Positions 22,561 to 40,262 of a stretch of 64,000 nucleotides of DNA are shown here, in pieces. The position numbers were made by a program, and so were the translations under genes. The notes beneath the pieces are model-generated. The model was not told the DNA's origin. It saw only the letters and a list, made by a program, of their open reading frames with translations, and made no database searches. Every line of letters begins with the position of its first letter. Position 1 is the stretch's first letter. This DNA is from Rhodothermales bacterium (GTDB lineage: Bacteria > Bacteroidota > Rhodothermia > Rhodothermales > Bin80): assembly GCA_965216255.1 (NCBI GenBank), contig OZ244148.1, positions 838,623 through 902,622 on the forward strand, read 5' to 3'.

Positions 22561-22782
22561 CTGGGGCAGGTGGTCAGATCCTAGCGCCCGGTGCCGGCGC
22601 CTTCGGGGCTTCTCCAGGAAGAATGGCCACAAGAATTACGGCTCGCCACATTGGTTCCGGAGACAAACGAACTTGATTTGATCCGCGTAGAGATTTGATA
22701 GCGCTAGACAATCCAGCATGCCGCTCTCACAAAGCGCGCCGGCTGGATCAAAATGCCCAAATCTGCGTGGAACCGGCCACTT

Positions 22783-22855
22783 GCCAATGTAGCTCAGTTG
22801 GTAGAGCAGCTCACTCGTAATGAGCAGGTCAGCGGTTCGAGTCCGCTCATTGGCT
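22783..22855 (+). tRNA. tRNA-Thr(CGT)
   Basis: Acceptor GCCAATG/CATTGGC, D-arm GCTC-AGTTGGTA-GAGC, anticodon stem GCTCA/TGAGC with loop CTCGTAA, T-arm AGCGG-TTCGAGT-CCGCT. CCA is not encoded. Confidence 0.97.
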
Positions 22856-23039
22856 CCTCCATTTACGGCCGATAAATAGCGCTGCACGGCCATGCCTGGC
22901 CTTACTTCTTTCCTAAGGCGGACGTGGCGGGCCGCTAGAGACCGTTTCGTCTGGTGTGGCCCCGACCATAATCCGCGCCGACGCGGCACCGGAGTTGAGC
23001 CACAAGGCCTTGGTGACGGCCGAGGCCACCCGCCTCCTA

Positions 23040-23683
23040 ACCAGCGGCTGAGAAAGATAATGGCTCGGTACCGCGTGGCGGTCAATACATCGGCGAGCCC
23101 GTCCTTGTTAAGATCAGCTACCGCCAGATCGATTCCGACGCCGCTGTGGTTGTTTATGAGTTCCGCTACATACTGCACCCTCTTACCATTGCGGACGAGC
23201 CGGAACCAGTAGATAACCGGAGGCCCGAAGGGGTCGGGATCCGATGGATTTCCCCCGAAATGCGCCCACCAGCGCTTCCCTGCTACGATGTCCTTTAAGC
23301 CGTCACCGTCGGCTAGCGCCAACGCGTGCAGCGCCGCGAACACCACACCCTCATTCGGATGCACGAAATCGTCCATGATCGTGTGCTGTTCGAACGAGAT
23401 ACTGCCGTCCGGTGCACGCTTTTGCTCAAACCAGGCAAGGCCGAAACCGTGCGCTTCGAGACTGGTGACGACATCATTCAATCCGTCACCGTTCACATCG
23501 TAGGCAAAGGTCCTGCCTCCACCGGGTCCGCCTTGCTGCGCTCCTCAGCGTCCTAAGGATTCCGCGTGGTAAATCCACGGCGGGCCGGTTAGGACCTCCG
23601 GTTGTTCCCACCAGCCGTAGGCCTGTATGATATCCATTCGAGAGTCGCCGCTGATGTGACCCGCTCCGAGACCGTGGGCAAAC
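23040..23683 (-). pseudogene. C-terminal half of a split FG-GAP/VCBS-repeat (plus DUF1080-like) gene
   Basis: Reads FAHGLGAGHISGDSRMDIIQAYGWWEQP..*..AYDVNGDGLNDVVTSLEAHGFGLAWFEQ..DLNKDGLADVL, with an in-frame TGA at 23545-23547. The 3' limit is approximate. Confidence 0.8.
23677..23683. repeat. Left target-site duplication GGCAAAC of the IS66-bounded block
   Basis: Identical to 40256-40262; abuts GTAAGCG. Confidence 0.85.
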
Positions 23684-24049
23684 GTAAGCGTCCGGTGAAG
23701 TACAGGTCAGCGGCAGCTACAGGTGTGCCGATGGGTACAGGACGGCTGGAAGGCGGAGAGCAGGTGGGCTTGCCGGATCCGGCACACTCGGTGCTTGGCA
23801 GCTATGCCGCCTTGTTTTTGTCAGCTTGCCGTGCCTTCTGCCAATGATGAGGCAAGAGGTCAGCTACGCGCCTGGCCGGATGCGTCGGGATGCGCTCGAA
23901 CACGTCCGTGAGCCACTCCTGGGGATTGACACCGTGTAGCTTGCACGTGCCAAGTAGTGCTTGTACGAAAATACTTTAAATCTTCAATAAACAATCGGTT
24001 ATATCTTGCAATTGGCGGTGAATCTGAGGGACGTATAGCCGATTTGGGC

Positions 24050-25453
24050 CGCCAATTAAAGTCCGAAGTGCAACAACTGTAGACAAGGTGGTATGCCCCT
24101 GAGTAGAGACAGAAGATAGCACAGGCAACGCGGAAAACGAGCTTCTTCGGAGGGCGGGCGGAGCCCGACCGGAGAAGAAGCTGCTTGCTGGCCGAAGAAA
24201 TTCGCGCTCCTTGACCTTTGAGGCAGCCAATGCCGACGGGCGAGCATGGCTCTTCCCCTGCGTGTAGGCACGCATGATGTCACCCGAACATGGTACAATG
24301 GTCTATGGGTCTTTCTGGCGACGACCCGACTCAGACCATGGACGCGGAGGCTGCCACGCCCTCTAGTGCAGGAAGGAAAACCTCCGCCGGCGTGCGGTAG
24401 GCCAAGCATCGGCGCGGACGGTTGTTCAATTGCGCTTGCACCCGCCTCACCGCTGCCGGTTCAACCGTGTGAAAGTTGGTTGCCTTCGGGAAGTACTCTC
24501 GCACCAGGCCGTTGGTGTGCTCGTTCAGACCACGCTCCCAGGAGTGGTATGGCCTCGCAAAGTAAAACGATGCGGAAAGCGCGCTGGCGATCTGCCGATG
24601 ATGAGCGAACTCCTTGCCATTGTCCGCCGTGATAGTAAGTACCCGGTCCTTTACCGGACTGAGACAACCTATGATCGCATGGCGGACCCCGATCGCAGCC
24701 TTTGACGCAACGTGCTCAAGAAACGTGAATTTCGAGGCGCGATCGACCATGGATACCAGTGCTCCCTGTTGTTTCGCCCCGATGATCGTATCAACCTCCC
24801 AGTCGCCTATCCGCGTCTTCTGCTCTACAATGGGATCACGTTCGCTGATGTCTACACGGTGCGGTATCAGGCCGCGCCCAGCACCGCTCTTGTTACGCCT
24901 GTTGTACCGCTTACCACGGCGACGCAGCAGCTTGTACAACGATCCGCCAGCCGCTCGGTCCACCCAGCTATGCCTGTAAATCCATGTGGTGCTTACCGAA
25001 ACGACACCATCACGACGAAGTCGACCCGAGACCTGCTCTGGACTCCAGTGCAGGGCGAGCTTCTCACGCACAAGAGACCACATCGCTTCAGTCATCTTCC
25101 GTGGACGCAACGATGCCTTCCTCCGCCGCCCGCTGGCCAAGCGGGTAGCCTGTTGATACCGGTAGCCCCTACCTCCGCTGTTGCGATGCAACTCCCGGCT
25201 GATCGTCGATGGCGAGCGACCCAACTGTCGCGCAATCTCGCGCAGCGAATCAGCTCGCTTCCTCAATGCGTGAATCTGGCACCTTTCCTCATAGGAAAGA
25301 TGATGATAGCCCGTCGCCATTTGATACCCTCCAATGATGTCTTAACGGAGCGTACCGGCATCATCTCGCTCACATGTAATCAGCGTGATGAATACGCGCT
25401 TGCTAGCGCGCTGTCATCCAAATCAAGTGTTGCACTTCGTTGTTAAATGGGCC
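24050..25453 (-). mobile_element. IS30-family element
   Basis: 26-bp imperfect IRs ending CGAAGTGCAACA; 3-bp TSD GGC at 24047-24049 and 25454-25456. Confidence 0.88.
24331..25320 (-). CDS. IS30-family transposase
   Basis: YHHLSYEER HTH, GRSPSTISREL, GDWEVDTIIG, TITADNGKEFA and PYHSWERGLNEHTNGLVREYFPK. Confidence 0.95.
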   Translation of the reverse strand: MATGYHHLSYEERCQIHALRKRADSLREIARQLGRSPSTISRELHRNSGGRGYRYQQATRLASGRRRKASLRPRKMTEAMWSLVREKLALHWSPEQVSGRLRRDGVVSVSTTWIYRHSWVDRAAGGSLYKLLRRRGKRYNRRNKSGAGRGLIPHRVDISERDPIVEQKTRIGDWEVDTIIGAKQQGALVSMVDRASKFTFLEHVASKAAIGVRHAIIGCLSPVKDRVLTITADNGKEFAHHRQIASALSASFYFARPYHSWERGLNEHTNGLVREYFPKATNFHTVEPAAVRRVQAQLNNRPRRCLAYRTPAEVFLPALEGVAASASMV

Positions 25454-25496
25454 GGCGTTTAAGAGCGCAAAACAGCTCACATTCGCCAGGGAAACC

Positions 25497-26930
25497 ATGC
25501 GCAAGATTGTCCCAGAGTGCCGTGCACTCGATAGTACGCCGATGGAGGAGATTGCCATAGACCCGAGAATGCGCGACGACATGAGTGCGGTGCTCAAGGG
25601 TCTGCAGTGCGTCTACTGCACGGCGGAATCTCGTGCGGCCTTGTTCACGATTCTGGAGGCGCACTTTCAGCCGGGTAAACGTAAAGATGTCGGACGCCCG
25701 GGCATGGATCTATGGCGCGTCATCGTGTTTGCGATAGTCAAGCAGTGCCTGGATCTGGACTACGATGCTTTGTTGTACCGGGCCAACAACGATCTCTTGC
25801 TGCGGGAGCTCTTGGGGCACGGAGACGCCGGGTTTGACGAGGTGAAGTACAGCAGACAGCGGCTGGTGGACAACGTGCAGCTTTTGACGCCGAAGCTGGT
25901 CCAGAAGGTGACCCAATTGATAGTGCAGACGGGGCACAAGGTGGCTGGAAAAAAGTCTGGGGCCGCGCTAGCCGGTCGCTGCGATTCCAGGGTGGTTAAG
26001 ACGCATGTGCACTATCCCACCGATGTGGGTCTGTGCTGGGATGCGGTTCGTGGTCTAATACGTGTGAGTGCACGCTCGGCTGCGGCATTCGCTCTTCCGG
26101 GCTGGCGCAAGCATGCGTATCGCACGCGGAAGGTATACCAGGCCTTCAGCCGGGTGCGGACGGCCCCGCGCTACCGGCAGAATCCGAAAGGAGTGCAGGC
26201 GTACTTGCGCCAGTGCACACAGACTGCAGCACGTGCCCGTACGCTGTTAAATGCCTTGGCCACGGCGCAGAAATCGGAGGCGGCGCGAGCGGATATCGCG
26301 TATTACTTGCACTATGTGGACTTGTTGGTGGATCAAATCCGGCGTCGCATCCTCTTGGGCAAGCAGATTCCACATGCGCGGAAAGTGTTTTCCATCCACA
26401 AGCCACATACGCGTTGGATCAGCAAAGGCAAGGCGGGCGTGCTGGTGGAGCTGGGCCTTCCGGTCGCACTGGTAGAAGATGAGCACCGGTTCATTTTGGC
26501 TTATCACATCCTGTGGGACACATCAGATGTAGAGGTGGCGGTACCGATCATTGACGCGGTGCAGGCGGCTTTTCCAGAGTTTAATGCGTGCAGTTTTGAC
26601 CGGGGCTTTCATAGCTTGAAGAATCGAGAAGCATTGGATGCTCGGCTGGCGCTCAATGCGCTTCCGAAGAAGGGCAAGCTTTCTCTGACGGAGCGTGCGC
26701 GGGAGCACGCGCCTGCGTTCAAGGCAGCGCGGCGGCAGCACCCGGCCGTCGAGTCGTGTCTGGCCAATTTCGGACTTCGGGGCGGTGCGCTGGTGCGGGA
26801 GAAGAGTCCGGAGAACTTCGCGCTGATGGTGAGCCTGTCGGTGTTGGCGGTCGACGTGCACCGGCTGGGTTGCCTGGTGCGCGCCCAGGAACGGGCACGA
26901 ATGAGGCGTCGGCGAAAGCGCGCGGCGTAG
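25497..26930 (+). CDS. ISNCY-family transposase
   Basis: GRPGMDLWRVIVF, RCDSRVVKTHVHYPTDVGL, VFSIHKPHTRWISKGKAG..VELG, SFDRGF and HPAVES. Confidence 0.85.
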   Translation: MRKIVPECRALDSTPMEEIAIDPRMRDDMSAVLKGLQCVYCTAESRAALFTILEAHFQPGKRKDVGRPGMDLWRVIVFAIVKQCLDLDYDALLYRANNDLLLRELLGHGDAGFDEVKYSRQRLVDNVQLLTPKLVQKVTQLIVQTGHKVAGKKSGAALAGRCDSRVVKTHVHYPTDVGLCWDAVRGLIRVSARSAAAFALPGWRKHAYRTRKVYQAFSRVRTAPRYRQNPKGVQAYLRQCTQTAARARTLLNALATAQKSEAARADIAYYLHYVDLLVDQIRRRILLGKQIPHARKVFSIHKPHTRWISKGKAGVLVELGLPVALVEDEHRFILAYHILWDTSDVEVAVPIIDAVQAAFPEFNACSFDRGFHSLKNREALDARLALNALPKKGKLSLTERAREHAPAFKAARRQHPAVESCLANFGLRGGALVREKSPENFALMVSLSVLAVDVHRLGCLVRAQERARMRRRRKRAA

Positions 26931-28485
26931 GCCCGCTACCACCTCGTAGAAAGGTCCCAATCGCAGTCCCCAAGGGACACGTATGCCCTCCCGATAGGAA
27001 CACAACGCCCTTCGAGTCGCAAACTGTCCGTGCGCGCACGCAAGAGACGCCAGCATGGCCGAAACACTCGAAGCGGACCGTCAACGAACTCAAAAAACAA
27101 CCGTGCCTGTGCATTCGAGGCCGAAAAAAGAGAGTATTCGGTCAATCACCAAGTAGCGAATAGACCACGGCTGCCCGCTGGGCCGCATCATGTGATCCCG
27201 CGAACAGGTAATTCTTGCGGCCGATAACCAACGGCCGCAGGGCATTTTCAATGAGGTTATTGTCCAGCTCCACGCGGCCCTCATCCAGGTATCGGGTCAG
27301 CCTTTTCCAAAGGCCGAGCGTATAGTTGATCGCCTGGCCCCAAGGACTCTTGGGCAACCCCCCGTTCGCCTCCAGCCAGGGCTTCAGCGCTTCCAGTACA
27401 GGCCGGGCCTCTTCCTGACGTACCTCGCGCCGACGATCCGCACTGGCTCCCTCCTCTCGCAGCCTGCGCTCTATGGCGTAGAGTCGCCTGATCTTTGTCA
27501 ACACGTGCTCGGCCTTCTCCGGTTCGTAGCTACGACAGTCGTAGAACTTGCGACGGGCATGCGCCATGCATCCGTAGACCGTCATAGACGGATGCGCATC
27601 GAAGACGTTGTAGGCCACATACCCGTCCGTCTGCAACGCTCCCGCATACCCACCCAAGAACGCCACCGGACCTGCACGGGCACGGCTCTTGCGATACTCC
27701 ATCACAAACAGCTTCTGCTCCGGAGTGTGGTACGCCCAGTAAAAACCCCGATGGGTCTTGCCCTTCTTCTTTCGATCCTGGACCTGGATACGTGTCTCAT
27801 CCGCCTGCAGATACCCGCTTAAGAGCGCCTCCTGCTTGAGTGCATCATACAGCGGCCCAAGGTGCCACGCTGACTGCGCTATCCAGCCTCCCAGCGTGGA
27901 CTTGGCAATTTCAATGCCTTCCCGCCGGAAACGCTGCTGCTGCCGGTACAGGGGCAAGTGGTCACAGTACTTGTTAACCACCACATCGGCCAACAATCCC
28001 GGTCCGGCCATGCCCTTGTCCACCAGCCGCGGAGGCAACTCGGCGATGATGACGCCGCTGTCCTCATCGGTCGGGTCCACATACTTGGGACGATGAATCT
28101 CGACCACCTTTATCATGCTGGGCACGCTCTCCAGGTACTGCGTCTTCTCCATGCCGATGCAAATGAGACCTGTCGTGTCCTCTTCAGGCTGGATTACGAT
28201 CGTCTCGCGGGGCAGGTGATCCGGCAGATCCTCGAAGTCCGGACGCCGCTTGGCCTTGCGCCGCTTCCGCTTCGGCTGATCCGTCTCGGGCTCGGGCGGC
28301 AGGGGCACCTCGACCTCCATGTCGTCAAACAAGAGGCCCTGCTGCGCCTCCGGCCCCAGTACATACCTTTCGCTCCTGGAGCCAAAGAGCAGGCGGAGGG
28401 CTTCAGCCAACTGTTTGTCCTTGCTCTCCAATTTCGCCTGCAGCCGGCTTATCTCTTCGCTCTGCTGATTGTTCTCCTCGGACAG

Positions 28486-30420
28486 GTAGAGTCGACGGGC
28501 GGCGCGTTACTCCCATTAGGAGCACGTTTCCGCCCGCCGCTCATCAAACCGGACGTGCAGAATTACCGCATCCGGCTTTCAGACAAGATCATGTTTTCGC
28601 CCACGGAAGGCCCTTGGTCGTTGGCTCAAGGCATATCAAGCCATACTTCTTGTATAGCTCTTCGTGTGGGAAGCGCGCCCACCCCCCCGGACTGAACCTT
28701 GTGCTTGCGACAGAGCCACTGGCGAATCCGCTTCTTCATGTGTGCATCTATGCCTGCATAGGCGGGATTGACTTGTCCAAGTCGGAAGTAGTTGGCCCAT
28801 CCGGTCGATAACCAGTTAAGGCGTGTTACCATCTCCTCTATGGACAGCAGTCCGTGCCTTGCCGCCGTTTGCTCACTGATCCTGCGGCATATGCTCTGGA
28901 CACTCTTCTTGCTCGGGCGAGTCCCTATATAGGATCCTCTGCCGCCCGGACGAAAGTTGCGCCCAATCCGGTACCCAAGGAACTCAAACGGTTCTTCGGG
29001 GCACCGGACGCATCGGGTCTTCCTTGCGTTGACCGGGAGTTTCAGCCGTTGCATTATGGTCTCCACCGCTTCCAGCATCGCTGTACCATCGGCCTTTCCG
29101 AGTACCACAAAATCATCGGCGTAGTTCACGATCGACGCTTGGAAGCGCCGGGCATAGCCCAGCAGCTTCCAGGCAAGGAGAAAACGGCGCATGTAGATGT
29201 TGCTCAGCAAGGGAGAGATTGGCGCGCCTTGCGGCGTACCCTTTCCTTCCTTCCGAGCCCGGTTCGTCAGGCGTTTGCCTGCCTTACCGTCATCTTCCAC
29301 TACCGGCATCACCAGCCATGACTTGATGAGTTCGAGCATCCGACCATCGCTGATACGACGCGCCAGAGACTTCATCATCTTGTCATGCGGTATCTCACCA
29401 AAGTAGTTCGACAGGTCTGCATCAACCACTTCCCGACAGCCCGTATTTACGAGCCTGTGGACGCGATTGACCGCTTCCTGTGCGCCACGTCCCTTCCGAT
29501 AGGCATATTGCTCCTCTTGTAAATCCGCTTCAAAGATCGGCCCCAGCACCAGCATTGCCGATGTCTGCGCGACCCTGTCACGAATACAGGGAATGCCTAA
29601 CGGTCGGAACTTGCCTGGCTGCTTCTTCGGGATCAGTACCTGACGTACCGCACGCGGTTTGTACGTACCCTCCCTTAGATCCCGCGCCAGTTCCCCCAAC
29701 CATCGATTTATGCCGTGCGCTTCAATGTCTCGAAACGTCTCTCCATCCACACCGGCACTGCCGCCGTTACGGCGTACTTGTTGCCAGGCTGCGAACAAGA
29801 AATCCTTCCTCCACACTTTGTCACACAATGCATGGAAGCGACGCTTGGGGTCTTCCTTCGCTTTGACATGTAATACGCGCTGGAGGTCCCGAACCGATTC
29901 TGATCCTGTTAGACCTGCGTCAGTAACCATTGCCTTTCCCCCTTTGCGTATTGCTCTTGAATGAGGGTCCCTTTCCTCGACGAGCATTACCCCGCGTCAC
30001 AGGTACTACGGACCCATCCGCCACCCTGACGGCCCAATCTGTCCCTTGCGGGAAATCGGTTGGCTTACGTGTGCCTCCGGCAGGGCTTCCCGTGTTGCTA
30101 CTTTTCCCATCTTGCATGCATGCCAGTGCCACTACCCCGGCGGAAGTAATCTGGTGCTTGTGTCGTTCTCTTCCCAGACTACCGGCGGCCTTCCCCTTAC
30201 CAACGGAGGGTCGGCTTCCGCATTGCATGTTTCGAGGCCTGCTCGGCATTCACTACGCGTTCCGGCCTGCATGCTCGCTGAATCGCCTAAGCGACCCTTT
30301 ACCAAAGTGCTTCAGCTCATGTTGTTACCTCCATAAACCGCTTTGGCCGCTACTAGCTGGAGCGACAGTTACTAGGTGGGATTCGCACCCACTAGGGAAA
30401 AGCGCCTTATCACGGCGCAC
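28486..30420 (-). ncRNA. Group II intron (1935 nt), same sense as tnpC
   Basis: 5' end GTGCG at 30420. Domain V GAAAGCCGGATGCGGTAATTCTGCACGTCCGGTTTGATGAG; 3' end ...CGACTCTAC. Removal restores the tnpC frame ...QQNAS|LSEE.... Confidence 0.95.
28626..29930 (-). CDS. ltrA: Group II intron reverse transcriptase/maturase (no En domain); apparent +1 frameshift near the C-terminus
   Basis: GGSAGVDG, IPKKQPGKFRPLGIPCIRDRVAQ, GTPQGAPISPLLSNIY, YADD and FLGY motifs. Confidence 0.93.
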   Translation of the reverse strand: MVTDAGLTGSESVRDLQRVLHVKAKEDPKRRFHALCDKVWRKDFLFAAWQQVRRNGGSAGVDGETFRDIEAHGINRWLGELARDLREGTYKPRAVRQVLIPKKQPGKFRPLGIPCIRDRVAQTSAMLVLGPIFEADLQEEQYAYRKGRGAQEAVNRVHRLVNTGCREVVDADLSNYFGEIPHDKMMKSLARRISDGRMLELIKSWLVMPVVEDDGKAGKRLTNRARKEGKGTPQGAPISPLLSNIYMRRFLLAWKLLGYARRFQASIVNYADDFVVLGKADGTAMLEAVETIMQRLKLPVNARKTRCVRCPEEPFEFLGYRIGRNFRPGGRGSYIGTRPSKKSVQSICRRISEQTAARHGLLSIEEMVTRLNWLSTGWANYFRLGQVNPAYAGIDAHMKKRIRQWLCRKHKVQSGGVGALPTRRAIQEVWLDMP

Positions 30421-30573
30421 GCTGGCGTTCTGCTGAAGCACCGCGGCAAGCTGCGCACGGAAGGTCTCAACATCCGCAGAAGAGAGGGAGGAATGTGCTT
30501 CGGGCTGCATGACTGTTCAACAACGCCTGCACATGTATTGTTCCCCGTTTCCACATACTATCTATCCCGATTT

Positions 30574-30909
30574 TCAGCTCTTAACCGCATACCGGCGCCG
30601 GTATTTTACGGACTTCAGCGACACTCCCTCCAGTAACATCACCATCTGCGTCCACGTCGGCATATCCTCTTTCGGCAGCTCAAACGTACCCGCTTCAAGC
30701 CTTTTGTAAAACAAGGCGAAGCCGTTTCGGTCCCACGAAAGCGCCTTCAGATGGCTCCGCCTCCTGTTGACGAACACAAAGACGTCCCCCGACATGGGAT
30801 CCCGCTTCATGCCGCTTTTCACCAAGGCGCACAGACCGTCAAAGCTCTTGCGCATGTCGGCCGGCGGCCGGTAAAAGAAATACCGGTGCGAAGGCCCCAG
30901 TCCGATCAT
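30574..30909 (-). CDS. tnpB: IS66 accessory protein TnpB
   Basis: DMRKSFDGL, GDVFVFVNRRR and WDRNGFALFYKRLEAGTF. Confidence 0.93.
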   Translation of the reverse strand: MIGLGPSHRYFFYRPPADMRKSFDGLCALVKSGMKRDPMSGDVFVFVNRRRSHLKALSWDRNGFALFYKRLEAGTFELPKEDMPTWTQMVMLLEGVSLKSVKYRRRYAVKS

Positions 30910-31205
30910 GACTGCACCAGCTGCGCCAGGTACGAGGCAGATACCGGCGCCAAGAGGCGCACGCGTATCCCGCCCGGGTACATGATCTCCACTTGCGCCT
31001 CTTCACCTGCCGTGGGTCTGCCAATCTCCACAAAGGCGCCGCTGTCCACTGCCGCAGCCTCCAGGCGATACTTCCGACGCCAGTAAAACAGCTGCCCATA
31101 CGAGATGCCGCGCTCGGCACAGAACGCTGCAGCGGTCTGGCTGCTTTCTTCATACTGTTCCATGAGCGGAAATATTTCTTCCGCCGTACGTCTGGGCTGT
31201 CTCAT
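30906..31205 (-). CDS. tnpA: IS66 accessory protein TnpA
   Basis: HTH FCAERGISYGQLFYWRRK and VEIMYPGGIRVR; ATGA overlap with tnpB. Confidence 0.88.
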   Translation of the reverse strand: MRQPRRTAEEIFPLMEQYEESSQTAAAFCAERGISYGQLFYWRRKYRLEAAAVDSGAFVEIGRPTAGEEAQVEIMYPGGIRVRLLAPVSASYLAQLVQS

Positions 31206-31612
31206 GCCATCCAGGCTTTGAGTCCTCGGGTCTATGAGTAATCTCCCGAGAAATCGTCACCTTATCCAGATGGGTTTCACCGCACGCTTACGATTTACCG
31301 TCCCGGTAACAAGGTCGCCTTACATGTAAGCACCCAGCCATTTCGCGAAGCGAAACCAGGGCGAATGCCCGTGAGGCGCGGCGAAAGGCCTTTGTCTTGT
31401 TTGCTGGTACCTGGTACTACCTGGTACCCATTCTCCCAAGTGACAGCAAGCGCGGCAAGAGTGCGATCACGCACAAATCCACATACGTCGGGCGGCGAGT
31501 GATACGTAGTCCGAATAAACCGGCGAGAGCACCCTCGCGAAGGCTCATTCAGGGTATCACACAAGTCTACAACCGACGCACCCCGCTGGCAGCGTTTGCA
31601 CTTTCGCTCGGC

Positions 31613-32206
31613 CTATATTGACTCAAGAGGCGTTGGTACTGACGGCGGATTCCATGACGGTGCCCGGCCATTGACAAGAAACCGGCCGATCCACGACACC
31701 CAACCGGCCGCATTGTAAAACTTGATACGTACTTCCTTAGGCGAGAATTGCGCCTCATCTGCGATCTGACTGCTGTGGGCCAATGCGTTCCTCTCCGCGA
31801 CAAGTGCCATAAAATCGAGGGAGGCACTTAACACATCTCCGTTTTCCTCGCTAGCCTCTTGAACTCTATCCCGGAAGTCCGTACCGAACTTCCTCAAGAA
31901 ACTGTTGACCTTGCCAGATTTCCAATCAAACAGCGTGTGGAATCTTCGATCAAGAACTCCCGCTCTTACGAACAATACAAGCGTCTCTTCACTAGAGGCT
32001 CTGTTCGCGAAGTCCAGCAAAGCACACACGGTCCGGCGCTCAAGCCAGTTCCCCGCCGCAAGAACCATCGCCTTCGCGAAAGCTGATCGTGTGCTGACTA
32101 AGATCGTAGCGTCGCACCCAGACATGTACTGTTCCAAGTCGACGAGGTTGTCCCACAAACGTTCGACGTACGATTCCGCTGGCTCGGGAGGCGCCTGCAT
32201 ATGCAC
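31613..32206 (-). CDS. HEPN-domain protein (RiboL-PSP/MAE_28990-like), putative RNase effector
   Basis: Rx4H motif RNALAH in a helical protein with AKAMVLAAGNWLE and RRFHTLFDW; starts immediately after the DUF262 gene stop. Confidence 0.75.
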   Translation of the reverse strand: MHMQAPPEPAESYVERLWDNLVDLEQYMSGCDATILVSTRSAFAKAMVLAAGNWLERRTVCALLDFANRASSEETLVLFVRAGVLDRRFHTLFDWKSGKVNSFLRKFGTDFRDRVQEASEENGDVLSASLDFMALVAERNALAHSSQIADEAQFSPKEVRIKFYNAAGWVSWIGRFLVNGRAPSWNPPSVPTPLESI

Positions 32207-33400
32207 TTATCTCCTGGACAGGACACTCTTCGCACTGCGAAGTCTGGCCTTGACTTTGTCCGGCTTGGTCGTACCTTCCTTCAACGCCTCTCGAAACGCT
32301 GGGTCTTGGTCAATAGCAGAAATGTCCTCAGCACGCAATGGCTTGACAGCCGCGGAGCCGTCAGCGAGTCGCGGCCGCAGTGCTTCCGCGAACACAACCT
32401 CGAAGAGGGGCACATTGAATCGGGAACGACCTTTCACCATGAAGACATCATCTGGCAAATCCGAACAGGCTTCCAAAAAATCAGAAAAGAGGCACTTCAC
32501 CTTATCGATCATATCAGGGCCGAAGTTGCGCTTGCAGTTTCCGGAAAACCGATTGAGAAACTTCACCATTGAGGGCCGATACTCATTGAGCCAGAGCAAA
32601 AGCGCGAATGAGCGGAGAAGAATTTCTACGTCCTTGAAGCGAACGTCAGGTTCTGGCCGGGGTAGCAGGCGGCGCCAACATGACCGCATGTTCAGCTTGA
32701 GCAGTAAGTCCAAGAACTCGGAGTTGTACAGACTCATCCTCAGTTCTTGAGCCGACAGATTTAAGCCCCCCGAGTTCAAACGGTTGAAAATTTCAAACAT
32801 CGAAGAGTGATCGTCTGTTGGCCTAACCTGCTTGATCACGACATTCCGTACGGTCCGAAGGTCCAGGGTTCGTTTCTCCTCCCCTAGTGTCGCGTACTTT
32901 TTCCCGTGGAACGGGCTTTGCGCGTTCGGTTCTCCGCCTAGTCCCTTTAGTGACAGCCGGAAATCAGAGAATAGGTCATCATTCTCGAGTATCGATTCAG
33001 CAAGTGAGCCACTTTCGTCGAACAGAGCCCTGATCTTGGCGCGCGCATTGCGATTTGGGAAACGCCCCTTAACAAAGTAATAGAGCGTCATGAGTCTCTG
33101 CTGACCATCAATCAGTAGTAGGGGATCTTTGTTGTGCTGGTAGAGAAACACTTGGGGAACGGGCAATCCGAGAAGTAGGGACTCAATTAGACGTGAGGAT
33201 CGAGCTAGATCCCAGACGAAGTTTCTCTGGAATCCAGGTATGCGAATAGAACCTGCGTCGATGAACGAGACGATGACAGCGACGTTGAAATCGTTAGGGA
33301 CTGCCGTGATGTCGTATTCGGGAATATAGCTGTCAGGCGCTGGTTCCTCCCCGTGGTCGCGCCATTCCTCTTCCGTGATTTCAGGATTTCTGCCAGCCAT
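32207..33400 (-). CDS. DUF262 (ParB-like/GmrSD N-terminal) domain protein
   Basis: IPGFQRNFVW, LIESLLLGLPVP, IDGQQRL and FNRLNSGG motifs. Confidence 0.9.
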   Translation of the reverse strand: MAGRNPEITEEEWRDHGEEPAPDSYIPEYDITAVPNDFNVAVIVSFIDAGSIRIPGFQRNFVWDLARSSRLIESLLLGLPVPQVFLYQHNKDPLLLIDGQQRLMTLYYFVKGRFPNRNARAKIRALFDESGSLAESILENDDLFSDFRLSLKGLGGEPNAQSPFHGKKYATLGEEKRTLDLRTVRNVVIKQVRPTDDHSSMFEIFNRLNSGGLNLSAQELRMSLYNSEFLDLLLKLNMRSCWRRLLPRPEPDVRFKDVEILLRSFALLLWLNEYRPSMVKFLNRFSGNCKRNFGPDMIDKVKCLFSDFLEACSDLPDDVFMVKGRSRFNVPLFEVVFAEALRPRLADGSAAVKPLRAEDISAIDQDPAFREALKEGTTKPDKVKARLRSAKSVLSRR

Positions 33401-33749
33401 CCCGAGGGTAGGTTTGTGAGAGCCGAAAGATAGTTACAGTATCTACCAGAAGCGAGTGTCGAGTGTTCCTGCAAGGGGGATGGCCGTGACGGTTGTTGCA
33501 GGCATGGATTGTGGGTTCTCGGTGAGCGCAACATACTGCCTCGTTTGGGAAAGGGGTGGATGGGCGTGCGGCGTGGGGCGCCGATCCCATCCACCCCTAC
33601 TCTTACTCCGCCGACAATAAACACCCCGACGACGACAACGACCTGCTTTCCGTCGTGCCCGCTGAATGGGCTGCGGGACGTGATAATAGGTTACGCCTGA
33701 ACGCAAGCCGATCTTGGCGCCACACCACCGTCTGCTAACTGGCCGGCAG

Positions 33750-34085
33750 TCACCGTCGATTCCGAAACCAGAGAAGGGTTCTCCTGATCACATACGTGAA
33801 CCAGAAAATGTAAAATAGGAAACTCAGGATTACCGTTAAAGCCACGTGCCAATCTTCTGTGTACAAGTAGTCGGCGAAGGATACCAGTAGCATGGGACCT
33901 ATGGTCAGCAGCAGAAACAGGACGATCCGCCAAGCTATCCCAATGGCAGCTGACACGCTCTGTGTTGGTGTTTCGGGCCTGTTCCCGGGTCTCTGTTTCC
34001 GGGAGGTTGGTGCGCCTTCGTCGTTTCCTTCAATAAGTCGCCATCTGGCGTCTTTGATATCCGGATTGCGCATGGGACGAGTCAT
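33750..34085 (-). CDS. Small 2-TM hypothetical membrane protein
   Basis: 111 aa from MTRPM with two clear hydrophobic segments (IGIAWRIVLFLLLTIGPMLLVSF; VALTVILSFLFYIFWFTYVI). Confidence 0.5.
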   Translation of the reverse strand: MTRPMRNPDIKDARWRLIEGNDEGAPTSRKQRPGNRPETPTQSVSAAIGIAWRIVLFLLLTIGPMLLVSFADYLYTEDWHVALTVILSFLFYIFWFTYVIRRTLLWFRNRR

Positions 34086-34607
34086 GGTCACATGATATGG
34101 CAGGCCTGTTAGACAGGTGACGAAACGCAAGGTTCTGCGTTACATAAGCGCTCATTATGTGAGAAACTGTCATATCTTGGGTCTGTAGAATGCCGCGGCG
34201 TATCTTTGTGGAGTACCCATCAATCGCCCTAGACGGGCATATCCGGACTACATCGTATGACAGATCCAACAGAATCCAACGTACACTCACTCCTTACCCG
34301 TGAGGAGGCACTCAGCACTCTGGATGATCTGGTGCGCAGCTCCGCCCGGCGCATGCTTCAGGCAGCGCTCGAGCGGGAAGCCGACGACTACGTGAAGGCC
34401 CATGCACACCTGCGGAATGAGAACGGCCACCGAATGGTCAAACGCAATGGCCACCATCCGCAGAGAGAAATCCTCACGGGTGCGGGCCCGCTAGCGATCC
34501 AGCGGCCCCATATCCGTAACCCTCGAACAGATCTTATAGTAGGACTGCTCCGGCTGGGCGAGCTACATTAGCTCGTTCACCACATTCACCCAAACCGGAA
34601 CAGCCTC

Positions 34608-35747
34608 ATGCAAAGATACACTCCAACATTCACTTCGGCCTCCTCGCTGGTTGTCGGCATGGACGTGCACAAGAAGACCATTGCGCTTTGCGTGTACGAC
34701 GACAGCACGGGCGAGGTAATTGACGAGCGGCAGTTGCCGCACGACATGCCGAGAATCCGCAAGTATGTGCAGAAGTTACAGAGGCGCTACGGCGAGGTTC
34801 GTTGCTGCTACGAAGCGTCGTCCTGCGGATTCGGCCTGCAGCGTGCGCTGCAGGTGCAGGGCGTGCACTGCGACGTGATCGCCCCCTCATCCATTCCGCG
34901 TCGACCGGGCGAGCGTATCAAGACTGATCGACGGGATGCGATGAAGCTGGCCACGTTGTATGCCAAAGGGCTGCTGACGCCGGTGTGCGTACCGGAAGAG
35001 GAGCAGGAAGCAGCCCGGTCCCTTTTGCGCTGCCGCGCTGACTTGGTGGAGTCTATCACGCGCACCAAGCAGCGGATCCTGTCTTTCATTCAGACCCGGG
35101 GCTTTCGGTACACCGGTGCCACAAACTGGACGAAGGCCCATTGGAAGTGGATTCGTGCCTTGCCGGCAAGGGCGGTGGACCAGGTCACGCTGCAGACGTA
35201 TCTGCACAAGCTGACGTATCTGGAGCAGGAAGTGCACAGACTGGAACAGCAACTGGCAGAGGAGGCCGAAAAGGACCGCTACAGAGAGCCCGTGGGGGTG
35301 CTGATGGCCTTCCGGGGCATAGGCTTTGTGACGGCCATGACGCTGGTGTGCGAATTGGGAGACATCCGTCGCTTCGCGCATCCGCGGCAGTTAATGGCGT
35401 ATCTCGGCCTGGTGCCGAGCGAGTACAGCTCGGGCGATCACACGCAGCGCGGCTCCATCACAAAGACGGGCAACACGCATGTTCGCAAGGCGCTGGTGTC
35501 AACGGCATGGAAGTATGCAGCCCAACCGCGGTGCAGTAAAGTGCTACGCGAACGGCAGCAGGGCGTCTCGGCCGAGGTCGTTCTACTGGCATGGAAGGCC
35601 CAGTGCCGGCTGTACAAGAGATTCCGCAAACTGAGTCAGACGAAGTCGCGATGCGTGGCCAACACGGCGGTGGCGCGTGAACTGGCGGGCTTTCTCTGGG
35701 AGGCGTTGCGTATGCACACGGGCTCGCCGTTGCCGAAGGCCGCCTGA
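34608..35747 (+). CDS. IS110/IS1111 DEDD recombinase (transposase)
   Basis: RuvC-like GMDVHK, CYEAS, KTDRRDA; Tnp domain RRFAHPRQLMAYLGLVPSEYSSG and GSITKTGN. Confidence 0.95.
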   Translation: MQRYTPTFTSASSLVVGMDVHKKTIALCVYDDSTGEVIDERQLPHDMPRIRKYVQKLQRRYGEVRCCYEASSCGFGLQRALQVQGVHCDVIAPSSIPRRPGERIKTDRRDAMKLATLYAKGLLTPVCVPEEEQEAARSLLRCRADLVESITRTKQRILSFIQTRGFRYTGATNWTKAHWKWIRALPARAVDQVTLQTYLHKLTYLEQEVHRLEQQLAEEAEKDRYREPVGVLMAFRGIGFVTAMTLVCELGDIRRFAHPRQLMAYLGLVPSEYSSGDHTQRGSITKTGNTHVRKALVSTAWKYAAQPRCSKVLRERQQGVSAEVVLLAWKAQCRLYKRFRKLSQTKSRCVANTAVARELAGFLWEALRMHTGSPLPKAA

Positions 35748-36018
35748 CTCGTATCTTGTAACCAAAGAGAAATGGCCTATGGAGAAGTGATCGGGCACGG
35801 TAAGGAGAACCCACGATATGCCCTTGCGATAGCCAGCTCTCTTGCTGGTGAGTGCGCGTCAACAGATAGTGGCAGCTCCCGTCGAAACCGAAATCATGCG
35901 TTATGGTCCTTCGGGGCTTAGCACGCGAATACCAGATTGATTAGCCGTCGAAGCCGCCCGGTCGCTTCTCCAGAGGTCAAGCCAAACACTCTTCATGTAA
36001 TCTTCACTTGACATAGTA
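35748..36018 (+). ncRNA. Predicted bridge RNA/seekRNA of the IS1111-type element
   Basis: Contains TATGCCCT (reverse complement of target AGGGCATA), AACAG (target left plus core) and ATACCAGAT (donor circle junction), with intervening hairpins. Transcript limits are unknown. Confidence 0.7.
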
Positions 36019-36343
36019 TCCTACTATACCAGGGCATACCTTCACCAGCGCCATACTGCCGCGCTATATGCGCCGCAGTCCGTCGATAGATGCACTCATT
36101 CCGGCTTTGTACCTGCGGGGAGTTTCGACCAACGACTTTCCTATGGCCCTGGAGGCCATACTCGGGCCGCAAGCTGGCAACCTATCGCCATCGTCGATCA
36201 GCCGACTCAAGGGGGCTTGGCTAGAGGAATACCGGCAATGGAACAAGCGGGACTTGACGGGCAAGCGGTATGTTTACCTCTGGGCTGACGGGCTGTACTT
36301 CAATGTCCGCATGGGAAACGAGCGCCCGTGTCTGCTGGTTATT

Positions 36344-37781
36344 CGGAAGTTCCCCCCAAAATCAAGGCGATACAGAGTGTTCTGCAGGTATTAATCTCGG
36401 CGTAAGTAGTGTATGAATAAGCAGTTGCAGATAAGTCCTGCGCCACATTCGTCCGTAATAGGTCCAAATTATGATTCCCATGTAATTGACTCTGTCTTCA
36501 TCCAGTCTTCACAGTTATTCCGGACTCATAGTTGACGTTATAACACCTATTTACCCATCTTTATATCTGCGGCTATTCCTAGATCATCTTTCTAATAAAG
36601 TACCCATGTATGTCGCCACCGTCCCCAACCGCGGTGCCCGCCCCACCTACCTCATCCGCCAAGGCAAACGCCATGGCCGCAAAGTCGTCAAAACCACCCT
36701 CGCCAATATCTCCAAACTCCCCGATGATATCATCGACTACATCCGCATCCTCCTGCGCGGGGGCATCGCCGTCGATAACCCACAGTACGCCTTCCAACAC
36801 TCCTTCCGCTTCACCAAAGGTATCCCCCATGGAAACGTCGCCGCCGTACTCGGCTGCCTCCGTGACCTGAAGCTCCACAGCATCATCGCAACCAAAGATT
36901 CCAAACAGCGACGCCTCGCCATCGCCCTTATCGCTGCCCGTATCCTTGATCCCAAAAGCAAACTCGCCACCAGCGCAGCCCTGCACCCGGACACCGCCAC
37001 CCATTCGCTCGGTACCGAACTCGGTCTCGAAAACATTGACGAGGACACCTCTACCAGACCATGGATTGGCTGCTGAAGCGCAAAAGCACCATCGAAGAGC
37101 GCCTCGCTCGCCAGCACCTCGAGGAGGGCTCTCTCGTCCTTTGCGATGTTACCTCCACTTACGTCGAAGGCGAAGCCCTCGAGCTGGCCGAGTATGGCTA
37201 CTCCCGGGACAAGAAAAAGGGCAAGAAACAGATCGTCTTCGGCCTACTCACCGGCAAAGACGGCTGCCCCGTGGCCGTGGAAGTCTTTGCAGGCAATACG
37301 GCCGATCCCAACACGCTGGCTCCGCAGATTGCCAAGATCCAGCAACAATTCGGCCTCCGGCGCATCGTGCTCGTAGGAGACCGCGGCCTGCTTACCGAGG
37401 CCCGCATACGCAAAGAGGTCAAACCCGCCAGGACTGGATATCCGCCCTCAGGAAGAGCGGCATCCGCAAAATAGTGGAAACGGAAGCCCTGCAACTGTCC
37501 CTGTTCGACGAACAAGGCTTCGCGGAGATCACCACCGCCGTCTACCCGGGGGAGCGGATCGTCCTGTGCCGCAACCCGCTACGGGCCAGGGCGTCGGCGT
37601 ATAACCGCGAAAGACGGCTGGCAAAGACCGAAGAGGCGCTGGAGAAGATCGTAGTGGCCACCCGGCGCGAGGTAATCCCCTGCGTAGCATGAAGGCGATC
37701 AGCTTTCGTGTAGGGAAGGTCATCGGCAAGTGGAAGATGGAAAAGCATTTTGATCTGGATATTAAGGAAGGCTTCTTTAGC
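36344..37781 (+). pseudogene. IS1634-family element remnant (transposase from 36606, at least 3 frameshifts, truncated by IS66)
   Basis: MYVATVPNRGARPTYLIRQGKR..TLANISKLP, LCDVTSTYVEG, YGYSRDKKKGKKQIVFGLL, VGDRGLLT and ERIVLCRNP. The left boundary is approximate. Confidence 0.85.
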
Positions 37782-37867
37782 GTAAGCGTGCGGTGAAACC
37801 CATCTGGATAAGGTGACGATTTCTCGGGAGATTACTCATAGCCCCGAGGACTCAAAGCCTGGATGGC

Positions 37868-38167
37868 ATGAGACAGCCCAGACGTACGGCGGAAGAAATG
37901 TTTCCGCTGGTGGAACAGTATGAAGAAAGCAGCCAGACCGCTGCAGCGTTCTGTGCCGAGCGCGGCATCTCGTATGGGCAGCTGTTTTACTGGCGTCGGA
38001 AGTATCGCCTGGAGGCTGCGGCAGTGGACAGCGGCGCCTTTGTGGAGATTGGCAGACCCACGGCAGGTGAAGAGGCGCAAGTGGAGATCATGTACCCGGG
38101 CGGGATACGCGTGCGCCTCTTGGCGCCGGTATCTGCCTCGTACCTGGCGCAGCTGGTGCAGTCATGA
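37868..38167 (+). CDS. tnpA: IS66 TnpA
   Basis: Near-identical to 30906-31205. Confidence 0.88.
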   Translation: MRQPRRTAEEMFPLVEQYEESSQTAAAFCAERGISYGQLFYWRRKYRLEAAAVDSGAFVEIGRPTAGEEAQVEIMYPGGIRVRLLAPVSASYLAQLVQS

Positions 38168-38511
38168 TCGGACTGGGGCCTTCGCACCGGTATTTCTTTT
38201 ACCGGCCGCCGGCCGACATGCGCAAGAGCTTTGACGGTCTGTGCGCCTTGGTGAAAAGCGGCATGAAGCGGGATCCCATGTCGGGGGACGTCTTTGTGTT
38301 CGTCAACAGGAGGCGGAGCCATCTGAAGGCGCTTTCGTGGGACCGAAACGGCTTCGCCTTGTTTTACAAAAGGCTTGAAGCGGGTACGTTTGAGCTGCCG
38401 AAAGAGGATATGCCGACGTGGACGCAGATGGTGATGTTACTGGAGGGAGTGTCGCTGAAGTCCGTAAAATACCGGCGCCGGTATGCGGTTAAGAGCCGGG
38501 AATCGGGATAA
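38164..38511 (+). CDS. tnpB: IS66 TnpB
   Basis: DMRKSFDGL motif. Confidence 0.93.
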   Translation: MIGLGPSHRYFFYRPPADMRKSFDGLCALVKSGMKRDPMSGDVFVFVNRRRSHLKALSWDRNGFALFYKRLEAGTFELPKEDMPTWTQMVMLLEGVSLKSVKYRRRYAVKSRESG

Positions 38512-38562
38512 ATAGTATGTGGAAACGTGGAACAATGCATGTGCAGACGTTGTTGAACAATC

Positions 38563-40137
38563 ATGCAGCCCGAAGCACATTCCTCCCTCTCTTCTGCGGA
38601 TGTTGAGACCTTCCCTGCGCAGCTTGCCGCGGTGCTTCAGCAGAACGCAAGCCAGTCCGAGGTAATCAATCAGCTGAGCGAGGAGATAAGCCGGCTGCAG
38701 GCGAAATTGGAGAGCAAGGACAAACAGCTGGCTGAAGCCCTCCGCCTGCTCTTTGGCTCCAGGAGCGAAAGGTATGTACTGGGGCCGGAGGCGCAGCAGG
38801 GCCTCTTGTTTGACGACATGGAGGTCGAGGTGCCCCTGCCGCCCGAGCCCGAGACGGATCAGCCGAAGCGGAAGCGGCGCAAGGCCAAGCGGCGTCCGGA
38901 CTTCGAGGATCTGCCGGATCACCTGCCCCGCGAGACGATCGTAATCCAGCCTGAAGAGGACACGACAGGTCTCATTTGCATCGGCATGGAGAAGACGCAG
39001 TACTTGGAGATCGTGCCCAGCATGATAAAGGTGGTCGAGATTCATCGCCCCAAGTACGTGGACCCGACCGATGAGGACAGCGGCGTCATCATCGCCGAGT
39101 TGCCTCCGCGGCTGGTGGACAAGGGCATGGCCGGACCGGGATTGTTGGCCGATGTGGTGGTTAACAAGTACTGTGACCACTTGCCCCTGTACCGGCAGCA
39201 GCAGCGTTTCCGGCGGGAAGGCATTGAAATTGCCCAGTCCACGCTGGGAGGCTGGATAGCGCAGTCGGCATGGCACCTTGGGCCGCTGTATGATGCACTC
39301 AAGCAGGAGGCGCTCTTAAGCGGGTATCTGCAGGCGGATGAGACGCGTATCCAGGTCCAGGATCGAAAGAAGAAGGGCAAGACCCATCGGGGTTTTTACT
39401 GGGCGTACCACACTCTGGAGCAGAAGCTGTTTGTGATGGAGTATCGCAAGAGCCGTGCCCGTGCAGGTCCGGTGGCGTTCTTGGGTGGGTATGCGGGAGC
39501 GTTGCAGACGGACGGGTATGTGGCCTACAACGTCTTCGAAGCGCATCCGTCTATGACGGTCTACGGATGCATGGCGCATGCTCGTCGCAAGTTCTACGAC
39601 TGTCGTAGCTACGAACCGGAGAAGGCCGAGCACGTGTTGACAAAGATCAGCCGACTCTACGCCATAGAGCGCAGGCTACAAGAGGAGGGTGCCAGTGCGG
39701 AACGTCGGCGCGAGGTACGTCAGGAAGAGGCCCGGCCTGTACTGGAAACGCTGAAGCCCTGGCTGGAGGCGAACGGGGGATTGCCCAAGAGCCCTTGGGG
39801 CCAGGCGACCAACTATACGCTCGGCCTTTGGAAAAGGCTGACCCGATACCTGGATGAGGGCCGCGTGGAGCTGGACAATAACCTCATTGAAAATGCCCTG
39901 CGGCCGTTGGTTATCGGCCGCAAGAATTACCTGTTCGCGGGATCACATGATGCGGCCCAGCGGGCAGCCGTGGTCTATTCGCTACTTGGCACGTGCAAGC
40001 TACACGGTGTTAATCCCCAGGAGTGGCTCACGGACGTGTTCGAGCGCATCCCGACGCATCCGGCCAGGCGCGTAGCTGACCTCTTGCCTCATCATTGGCA
40101 GAAGGCACGACAAGCTGACAAACACAAGGCGGCATAG
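38563..40137 (+). CDS. tnpC: IS66 TnpC DDE transposase, intact
   Basis: N-terminal coiled coil, LFGSRSER, KYCDHLPLYRQ, LQADET, LQTDGY, CMAHARRKF and DNNLIENALRPLVIGRKNYLFAGS. Confidence 0.96.
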   Translation: MQPEAHSSLSSADVETFPAQLAAVLQQNASQSEVINQLSEEISRLQAKLESKDKQLAEALRLLFGSRSERYVLGPEAQQGLLFDDMEVEVPLPPEPETDQPKRKRRKAKRRPDFEDLPDHLPRETIVIQPEEDTTGLICIGMEKTQYLEIVPSMIKVVEIHRPKYVDPTDEDSGVIIAELPPRLVDKGMAGPGLLADVVVNKYCDHLPLYRQQQRFRREGIEIAQSTLGGWIAQSAWHLGPLYDALKQEALLSGYLQADETRIQVQDRKKKGKTHRGFYWAYHTLEQKLFVMEYRKSRARAGPVAFLGGYAGALQTDGYVAYNVFEAHPSMTVYGCMAHARRKFYDCRSYEPEKAEHVLTKISRLYAIERRLQEEGASAERRREVRQEEARPVLETLKPWLEANGGLPKSPWGQATNYTLGLWKRLTRYLDEGRVELDNNLIENALRPLVIGRKNYLFAGSHDAAQRAAVVYSLLGTCKLHGVNPQEWLTDVFERIPTHPARRVADLLPHHWQKARQADKHKAA

Positions 40138-40255
40138 CTGCCAAGCGCCGAGTGTGCCGGATCCGGCAAGCCCACCTGCTCTCCGCCTTCCAGCCGTCCT
40201 GTACCCATCGGCACACCTGTAGCTGCCGCTGACCTGTACTTCACCGGACGCTTAC

Positions 40256-40262
40256 GGCAAAC
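40256..40262. repeat. Right target-site duplication GGCAAAC
   Basis: Identical to 23677-23683. Confidence 0.85.

Follow-up and report, generated by a model that had tools for sequence, protein, structure and literature searches.

An endonuclease-less group II intron with IIE/IIF hallmarks in the tnpC gene of an IS66 copy carried by a composite transposon

The window analysed here is a 64,000-nt stretch of the genome of a Rhodothermales bacterium. It contains two inverted IS66 copies; the left copy bears a group II intron and a second insertion, and the right copy is intact (Table 1). Both were assigned to IS66 from the gene order tnpA-tnpB-tnpC and GTAAGCG terminal repeats, with Pfam matches to TnpB_IS66, DDE_Tnp_IS66 and LZ_Tnp_IS66. 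The ends and the 8-bp duplications of the family were read in ∼15 genome copies.

Table 1. Features of the IS66 composite transposon and of the group II intron in its left arm (positions are those of the window)
Feature	Position	Strand	Basis or remark
Composite transposon, inverted IS66 copies around 6.5 kb of cargo	23684..40255	.	7-bp repeats; empty site in a relative
7-bp direct repeats GGCAAAC	23677-23683 and 40256-40262		abut both outer ends
Left IS66 copy (GTAAGCG...CGCTTAC), bearing intron and second insertion	23684..31291	-	Pfam; ends
tnpA	30906-31205	-	upstream of tnpC
tnpB	30574-30909	-	Pfam; upstream of tnpC
tnpC exon 1, 90 nt (30 codons), 3' end is IBS1 GCCAGC	30421..30510	-	
Group II intron, 1935 nt, GUGCG...CUCUAC	28486..30420	-	Rfam matches; same ends in nine full-length genome copies at 97-100% identity
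Alpha motif UGUCGCUC, intron nt 54-61	30360..30367	-	pairing with nt 253-260
Putative EBS2 AUGC, intron nt 193-196	30225..30228	-	pairs with exon around -14..-10
Putative EBS1 GUUGGU, intron nt 217-222	30199..30204	-	covariation with 5' exon end
Alpha' motif GAACGACA in terminal hairpin loop, intron nt 253-260	30161..30168	-	IIE/IIF hallmark (PMC3753933)
Putative EBS3, G289	30132	-	pairs with first 3'-exon base C
ACUGGC, earlier EBS1 candidate, rejected as exon-binding site	30122..30127	-	invariant in intron families F1, F2 and F3
Reverse transcriptase/maturase ORF, 453 aa, frameshifted C-terminus	28626..29987	-	Pfam RVT_1 and GIIM; correct tail in other frame to ∼28590
G7 run, one G more than in the eight other full-length copies, +1 frameshift	28682..28688	-	nine-copy alignment
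Domain V: AGC triad, 2-nt bulge, 5-nt loop UAAUU	28546..28578	-	Rfam and folding
Domain VI: long helix, bulged A at 28492, 7 nt from 3' splice site	28489..28542	-	folding
tnpC exon 2, shortened at 27149 by second insertion	27149..28485	-	Pfam DDE_Tnp_IS66
3.2-kb high-copy insertion, 3' part of tnpC; 8-bp duplication CTACTTGG	23958..27148	.	HTH_38 and rve ORF, IS30-like
Right IS66 copy, 2474 bp, intact, tnpA/tnpB/tnpC (524 aa); empty GCAAGC site 38647-38652	37782..40255	+	

The intron interrupts tnpC of the left copy after codon 30, in sense. The open reading frame downstream of it matches LZ_Tnp_IS66 and DDE_Tnp_IS66. When joined, the two exons form one frame that is residue-for-residue collinear with the uninterrupted copy at 38563-40137, and unspliced tnpC RNA runs into a stop after 61 codons. 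Lying in sense, the intron would be transcribed together with tnpA-tnpB-tnpC and may be removed by splicing; the predicted exon junction is GCCAGC|CUGUCC. The position, the orientation and the restored frame are as the earlier note had read them. The exons do join in one frame, but a full TnpC is blocked by the second insertion at 27148/27149, so splicing alone would not restore it. A full IS66 measures 2474 bp, and the last 275 bp of the left copy are found at 23957-23683, beyond the 3.2-kb element. The left host copy is judged to be dead, with the second insertion as the cause. In the 3.2-kb element, 24331-25320 encodes an IS30-like transposase with HTH_38 and rve, and 25440-26930 is an open reading frame of 496 aa without a Pfam match; the terminal 250 bp of the element occur >50 times in the genome.

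Because the two IS66 copies are inverted, both outer ends of the composite are right-hand IS66 ends. IS66 duplications elsewhere in the genome are 8 bp, once 9 bp, and the 7 bp of the composite is unusual. Neither window copy has a duplication of its own, and the inner flanks are unrelated. Inversion between the two copies was considered as the cause of the missing duplications and was dropped, being at odds with the flank pattern. Genome G010, from a relative in the same family, joins the sequence that precedes 23684 directly to that which follows 40255, with a single GGCGUAC in place of the duplicated GGCAAAC. Contiguous flanks in the relative and the 7-bp duplication together indicate that the 16.6-kb block was a single insertion, and the intron is therefore aboard a composite transposon as had been proposed. 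The target was an FG-GAP-like gene with DVDGDG-type repeats (window 22636-23683 and 40256 onwards), which is intact in the relative. The cargo comprises a HEPN-like gene, a GmrSD_N/DUF262 gene and an IS110/IS1111 element, and is single-copy in the genome apart from the IS1111 element and a 370-bp repeat, which leaves no further composite for comparison. This repeat of ∼370 bp (34160-34530) has ∼35 genome copies and ends where the IS110/IS1111 element (34529-36038) has inserted.

Within the intron, Rfam group-II-D1D4-4 (RF02003) was matched with 80.5 bits at 30394-30255 on the minus strand, and domains V-VI (RF00029) were matched with 39.5 bits at 28580-28486 using relaxed thresholds, just below the 40-bit cutoff. 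The folding of domains V and VI far surpasses that of shuffled sequences (z = -6.7). The 5' GUGYG, the AGC triad and 2-nt bulge of domain V and the bulged A of domain VI are all in place. In the alignment of the nine full-length copies, the ribozyme parts of the window copy agree with the family consensus except for one base, in the domain V bulge. The copy carries ∼17 private substitutions overall and looks old.

The intron protein contains RVT_1 (5.9e-33) and GIIM (5e-15) in the Pfam search, which returned no HNH/endonuclease domain and nothing beyond these two. The reverse transcriptase and maturase (X) domain lie in domain IV, with the window copy frameshifted near the C-terminus because of the extra G in the run at 28682-28688; the extra G sits in a homopolymer, where an assembly error is possible. 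The protein is also altered by 7 substitutions, one of which, E149G, falls in the conserved LEPI motif. Three of the nine full-length copies, among them the one at genome 10411-12344, encode an intact protein of 465 aa that ends in LPWAKT. Five others, at genome positions 1856802, 2251439, 4488286, 4846938 and 5402762, share an insertion of 17 nt at intron nt 1223, by which the reverse transcriptase is cut to 292 aa. Since the window reverse transcriptase is frameshifted, splicing or further mobility of this copy would depend on protein supplied by an intact copy, of which the rest of the genome has three. The ends GTGCG...CTCTAC, the sense orientation and the lack of an endonuclease given in the earlier note were all recovered on the minus strand at 28486-30420. 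Its description of the intron as complete holds for the ribozyme, which is intact, but not for the protein, whose last ∼30 residues are shifted by the extra G. The window copy looks like a working ribozyme with a decaying protein gene.

The nine full-length copies in the genome are 97-100% identical, with shared ends and differing flanks, and are accompanied by many fragments. Dense fragment arrays of three related intron families were found, for example at 1.63-1.66, 1.70-1.72, 1.80-1.82, 2.45-2.46 and 3.46-3.48 Mb of G000:C1. These arrays include head-to-tail junctions in which CUCUAC is followed directly by GUGCG, and one target (…GGACAACCCAACACACACC) has been reused at least 15 times. In several members another GUGCGCCAGGC… element begins inside domain I, which suggests nested introns.

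Introns of types IIE and IIF are distinguished by a 5-nt domain V loop, an alpha' motif at the tip of the DId3 hairpin and a ribozyme of 450-700 nt (PMC3753933). All were found here. The domain V loop is UAAUU, the ribozyme without the open reading frame measures 1935 - 1398 = 537 nt, and no D/En domain is present. The alpha' motif (nt 253-260) is located in the loop of hairpin 236-279, and its pairing with nt 54-61, which shows compensatory changes, is kept by at least 92% of the 64 distinct sequences. The ribozyme thus has the hallmarks of the IIE/IIF type. It is similar to the IIE/IIF ribozymes Cl.be.I2, Pe.th.I2 and Ge.ur.I1 (PMC3753933) in its small size, 5-nt domain V loop, terminal-loop alpha' and location of EBS1 and EBS2 in DId, and its long structured domain VI is as in IIF. 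It differs from them in that IBS2 lies ∼4 nt from IBS1, whereas theirs is immediately upstream.

For placement between E and F by protein, the comparison was with one named anchor only, Ni.ha.I1 (class F/g3), an intron in an IS4 transposase on plasmid 1 of Nitrobacter hamburgensis (PMC3552965 Table S2). The two proteins are 43% identical over 99% of their length and both are without an endonuclease domain; both introns have an IS transposase target. Domain I of Ni.ha.I1 aligns to the profile of the window clade with E = 1.4e-41. Plasmid introns of Xenorhabdus, Buttiauxella and Planctomyces (50-52%) and introns of sponge-symbiont MAGs (∼70%) are nearer, so that placement in g3 is not established. 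The YADD motif of the reverse transcriptase excludes g2 (FADD). Of the solved structures, IIC reverse transcriptases match the protein best (E = 7e-47), followed by the chloroplast-like T.el4h (1.5e-35).

Group IIC introns have no EBS2 and an EBS1 of 3-4 bp, and insert after a terminator or attC hairpin. A IIC reading was prompted by inverted repeats in the 5' exons of several relatives. It was dropped for this clade because covariation for EBS2 was found; in addition EBS1 is 6 bp and there is no hairpin in the IS66 target.

Group II introns that target insertion sequences are known, as the earlier note had stated: Sr.md.I1 of Sinorhizobium medicae WSM419, of class D, lies in an IS66 transposase ORF, and RmInt1 in ISRm2011-2 (PMC4615759). 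The window intron resembles both in being endonuclease-less and homing in sense into a multicopy IS transposase gene, in recognition through EBS1, EBS2 and EBS3, and in a lagging-strand-template bias. It belongs to another lineage, with its 5-nt domain V loop, terminal-loop alpha' and 465-aa protein, has an IBS2-IBS1 linker of ∼4 nt against 1-2 nt, and resides in another host phylum.

The exon-binding sites were assigned by covariation over ∼60 lineages. The 80 loci collected, mostly from sponge-associated MAGs, encode proteins ∼70% identical, and their domain I was aligned. A blind scan of exon positions -30..-1 against every domain I column for antiparallel complementarity gave one clear signal. 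In 83 sequences, exon positions -1..-5 and nt 217-221 are 94-95% paired, and the pair types number 23-24 across four columns; nt 217-222 covary with exon -1..-6. These nucleotides are taken as EBS1; GUUGGU forms 4 Watson-Crick and 2 G-U pairs with IBS1 GCCAGC (exon -6..-1). Two sister families in the genome, F2 and F3, are ∼84% identical in domain I to the family of the window intron (F1) and have other targets. The loop tracks the target across the three, with GUUGGU facing CCAGC or CCAAC, GGUGU facing ACACC and GGUGAC facing GUCACC.

EBS2 was missed by the blind scan and emerged after variable-loop inspection and with an allowed shift of ±1 nt. On these terms, of 77 distinct lineage/target pairs, 23 show perfect pairing between the loop at nt 193-196 and exon -14..-11, against 3.3 ± 1.7 (max 10) with permuted exons (2000 permutations). 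In the IS66 target 3 of the 4 positions pair (GCA, around -13). For EBS3, nt 289 is the column that best covaries with exon +1 (91% paired, 6 pair types); the 3' ends of relatives were taken by regular expression, and some false ends inside domain VI were filtered before this test. GUUGGU, AUGC and G289 are thus the inferred EBS1, EBS2 and EBS3.

In many of the sponge-MAG relatives (L005, L036, L058, L067, L022, L055, L069 and others) the 5' exon contains a short inverted repeat whose 3' arm is IBS1, as in TGTAA…TTACA. A TA[G/A] at ∼-16..-14 is conserved in the sponge-MAG 5' exons, and CA[G/A] is found in the window genome. These observations suggest a hairpin or protein-recognised element upstream of IBS2.

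The target is multicopy, as had been noted: 31 IS66 copies in the genome bear the homing site, and 5 of them are occupied at the identical position. Occupied sites read GCCAGC in 4 cases and GCCATC in 1 (a mismatch at -2). Empty sites read GCCAGC (12), GCAAGC (8), GUCAGC (4), GCGAGC (1) and GCCACT (1), and the GCAAGC reported for the intron-free right copy was confirmed. The C-to-A change at -4 breaks a pair with GUUGGU too. C-5 and C-4 are retained in all 5 occupied copies, so that occupancy is 5/17 where they are kept and 0/14 where they are changed (one-sided p = 0.036). The link between occupancy and allele predicted by the earlier note was thus favoured genome-wide; GCCATC was grouped with GCCAGC post hoc, and when only strict GCCAGC is counted the allele does not reach significance by itself. 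The occupied copies stand in at least 4 separate parts of the IS66 tree, beside empty copies, and no two are mutual closest relatives. This scatter indicates that homing was repeated, with at least 4 independent events, and supports the sense-orientation retrohoming into IS66 tnpC that had been suggested.

Replication orientation was read from the cumulative GC skew, which has its minimum at 2.83 Mb and its maximum at ∼0.01 Mb; dnaA lies at 2.878 Mb. By skew and dnaA the replication origin is placed at about 2.83-2.88 Mb. The sense strand is the leading strand in all 9 full-length introns, 6 of them outside IS66 (p = 0.004), and at 16 of 19 intron 5' ends. With sense on the leading strand, insertion would have been into the lagging-strand template, a bias that was shown experimentally for RmInt1 and relatives (PMC4615759). 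Among IS66 sites with sense leading, 4 are occupied and 0 empty where C-5C-4 is kept, and 0 are occupied and 9 empty with another allele. With sense lagging the corresponding counts are 1 and 12, and 0 and 5. Occupancy is therefore 4/4 for copies permissive in both orientation and C-5C-4, and 1/27 for all remaining copies; 6 of the 31 copies (2 occupied) lie within ∼0.12 Mb of the predicted terminus, where the strand is uncertain, and without them the counts are 2/2 and 1/23. The IS66 copies are mutually related and few in number, and the tests overstate their independence. In the window, the left copy is permissive in allele and orientation and the right copy is non-permissive in both. One occupied IS66, at genome 1.43 Mb (G000:C1:1429298-1434545), is in the non-permissive orientation. 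This copy has a 9-bp duplication to itself, its intron contains further insertions, and it is a candidate for an intron carried by IS transposition.

The earlier note had taken ACUGGC as EBS1, pairing with 5 of 6 nt of GCCAGC. The hexamer does sit at 30127-30122 and is complementary to exon -6..-2, but it is identical in F2 and F3 although their exons end in ACACC and GUCACC. In that scheme the invariant base at -1 has no partner. The hexamer also does not covary with exons, against 94-95% for nt 217-222, and EBS3 lies 5 nt upstream of it. A location of EBS1 elsewhere, as found here, had been named in the earlier note as refuting its reading. An EBS1 role for ACUGGC is accordingly regarded as refuted, with a negligible chance of being correct, and GUUGGU at 30204-30199 is retained. 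It is also improbable that the link of occupancy with allele and orientation is an artefact of shared IS66 ancestry and small numbers. GCAAGC copies do cluster on the IS66 tree, several copies are near the terminus, and allele alone reaches only the p value given above, weaker still with strict GCCAGC. Against this, the occupied copies are spread over the separate parts of the tree described above, orientation alone splits the copies with an intact allele 4/0 against 1/12, and the six non-IS66 insertions obey the same strand rule.

A further explanation, which is possible but less likely than local homing, is that the left IS66 already contained the intron when the composite was inserted, so that the window copy reflects movement of the IS or transposon. 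The block moved as a unit, as the 7-bp duplication and the empty site in the relative show, and the private substitutions give the intron copy its old appearance. The occupied, non-permissive IS66 at 1.43 Mb with its 9-bp duplication is what such hitch-hiking would give. However, the left copy is permissive in allele and orientation where it now stands, all such copies in the genome are occupied, and no two occupied copies are nearest neighbours on the IS66 tree. A single genome does not give the order of events.

The preferred reading is that an endonuclease-less intron of IIE/IIF type very probably entered IS66 tnpC by retrohoming, with the state of the copy and the arrival of the composite as set out here. 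The target would be recognised through EBS1 with exon -6..-1, EBS3 G289 with the +1 C, and a weak EBS2 contact at ∼-13, as the covariation suggests. As the protein has no endonuclease, insertion would most likely proceed into the single-stranded lagging-strand template at the replication fork with nascent DNA as primer, as in RmInt1; this fits the leading-strand sense of every full-length copy. The IS66-cargo-IS66 block reached its present site as one composite transposon.

The arrangement is of a known kind, and damage has already reached the intron copy as well as the IS copy that hosts it. Homing into insertion sequences is a textbook route by which a retroelement spreads without harm to the host. 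With the window intron, which leaves knowledge of the mechanism unchanged, the known cases gain one of IIE/IIF type, from a repeat-rich and apparently sponge-associated bacterium. The case is of value mainly for the survey within one genome, whose 31 near-identical targets vary at one or two bases of the homing site and in fork orientation, and occupancy follows both. The survey provides exon-binding site assignments and testable target rules for a lineage with little mobility data. In the permissive orientation every C-5C-4 copy is invaded and every empty copy is altered in IBS1, mostly through synonymous changes at Ala29 (GCC to GCA or GCG) that break one EBS1 pair. It is tentatively suggested that the IS66 population records saturating retrohoming and escape. 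If true, a single genome would naturally demonstrate the two determinants that govern endonuclease-less intron homing in a IIE/IIF lineage, and this would point to selection on an IS for intron-resistant alleles.
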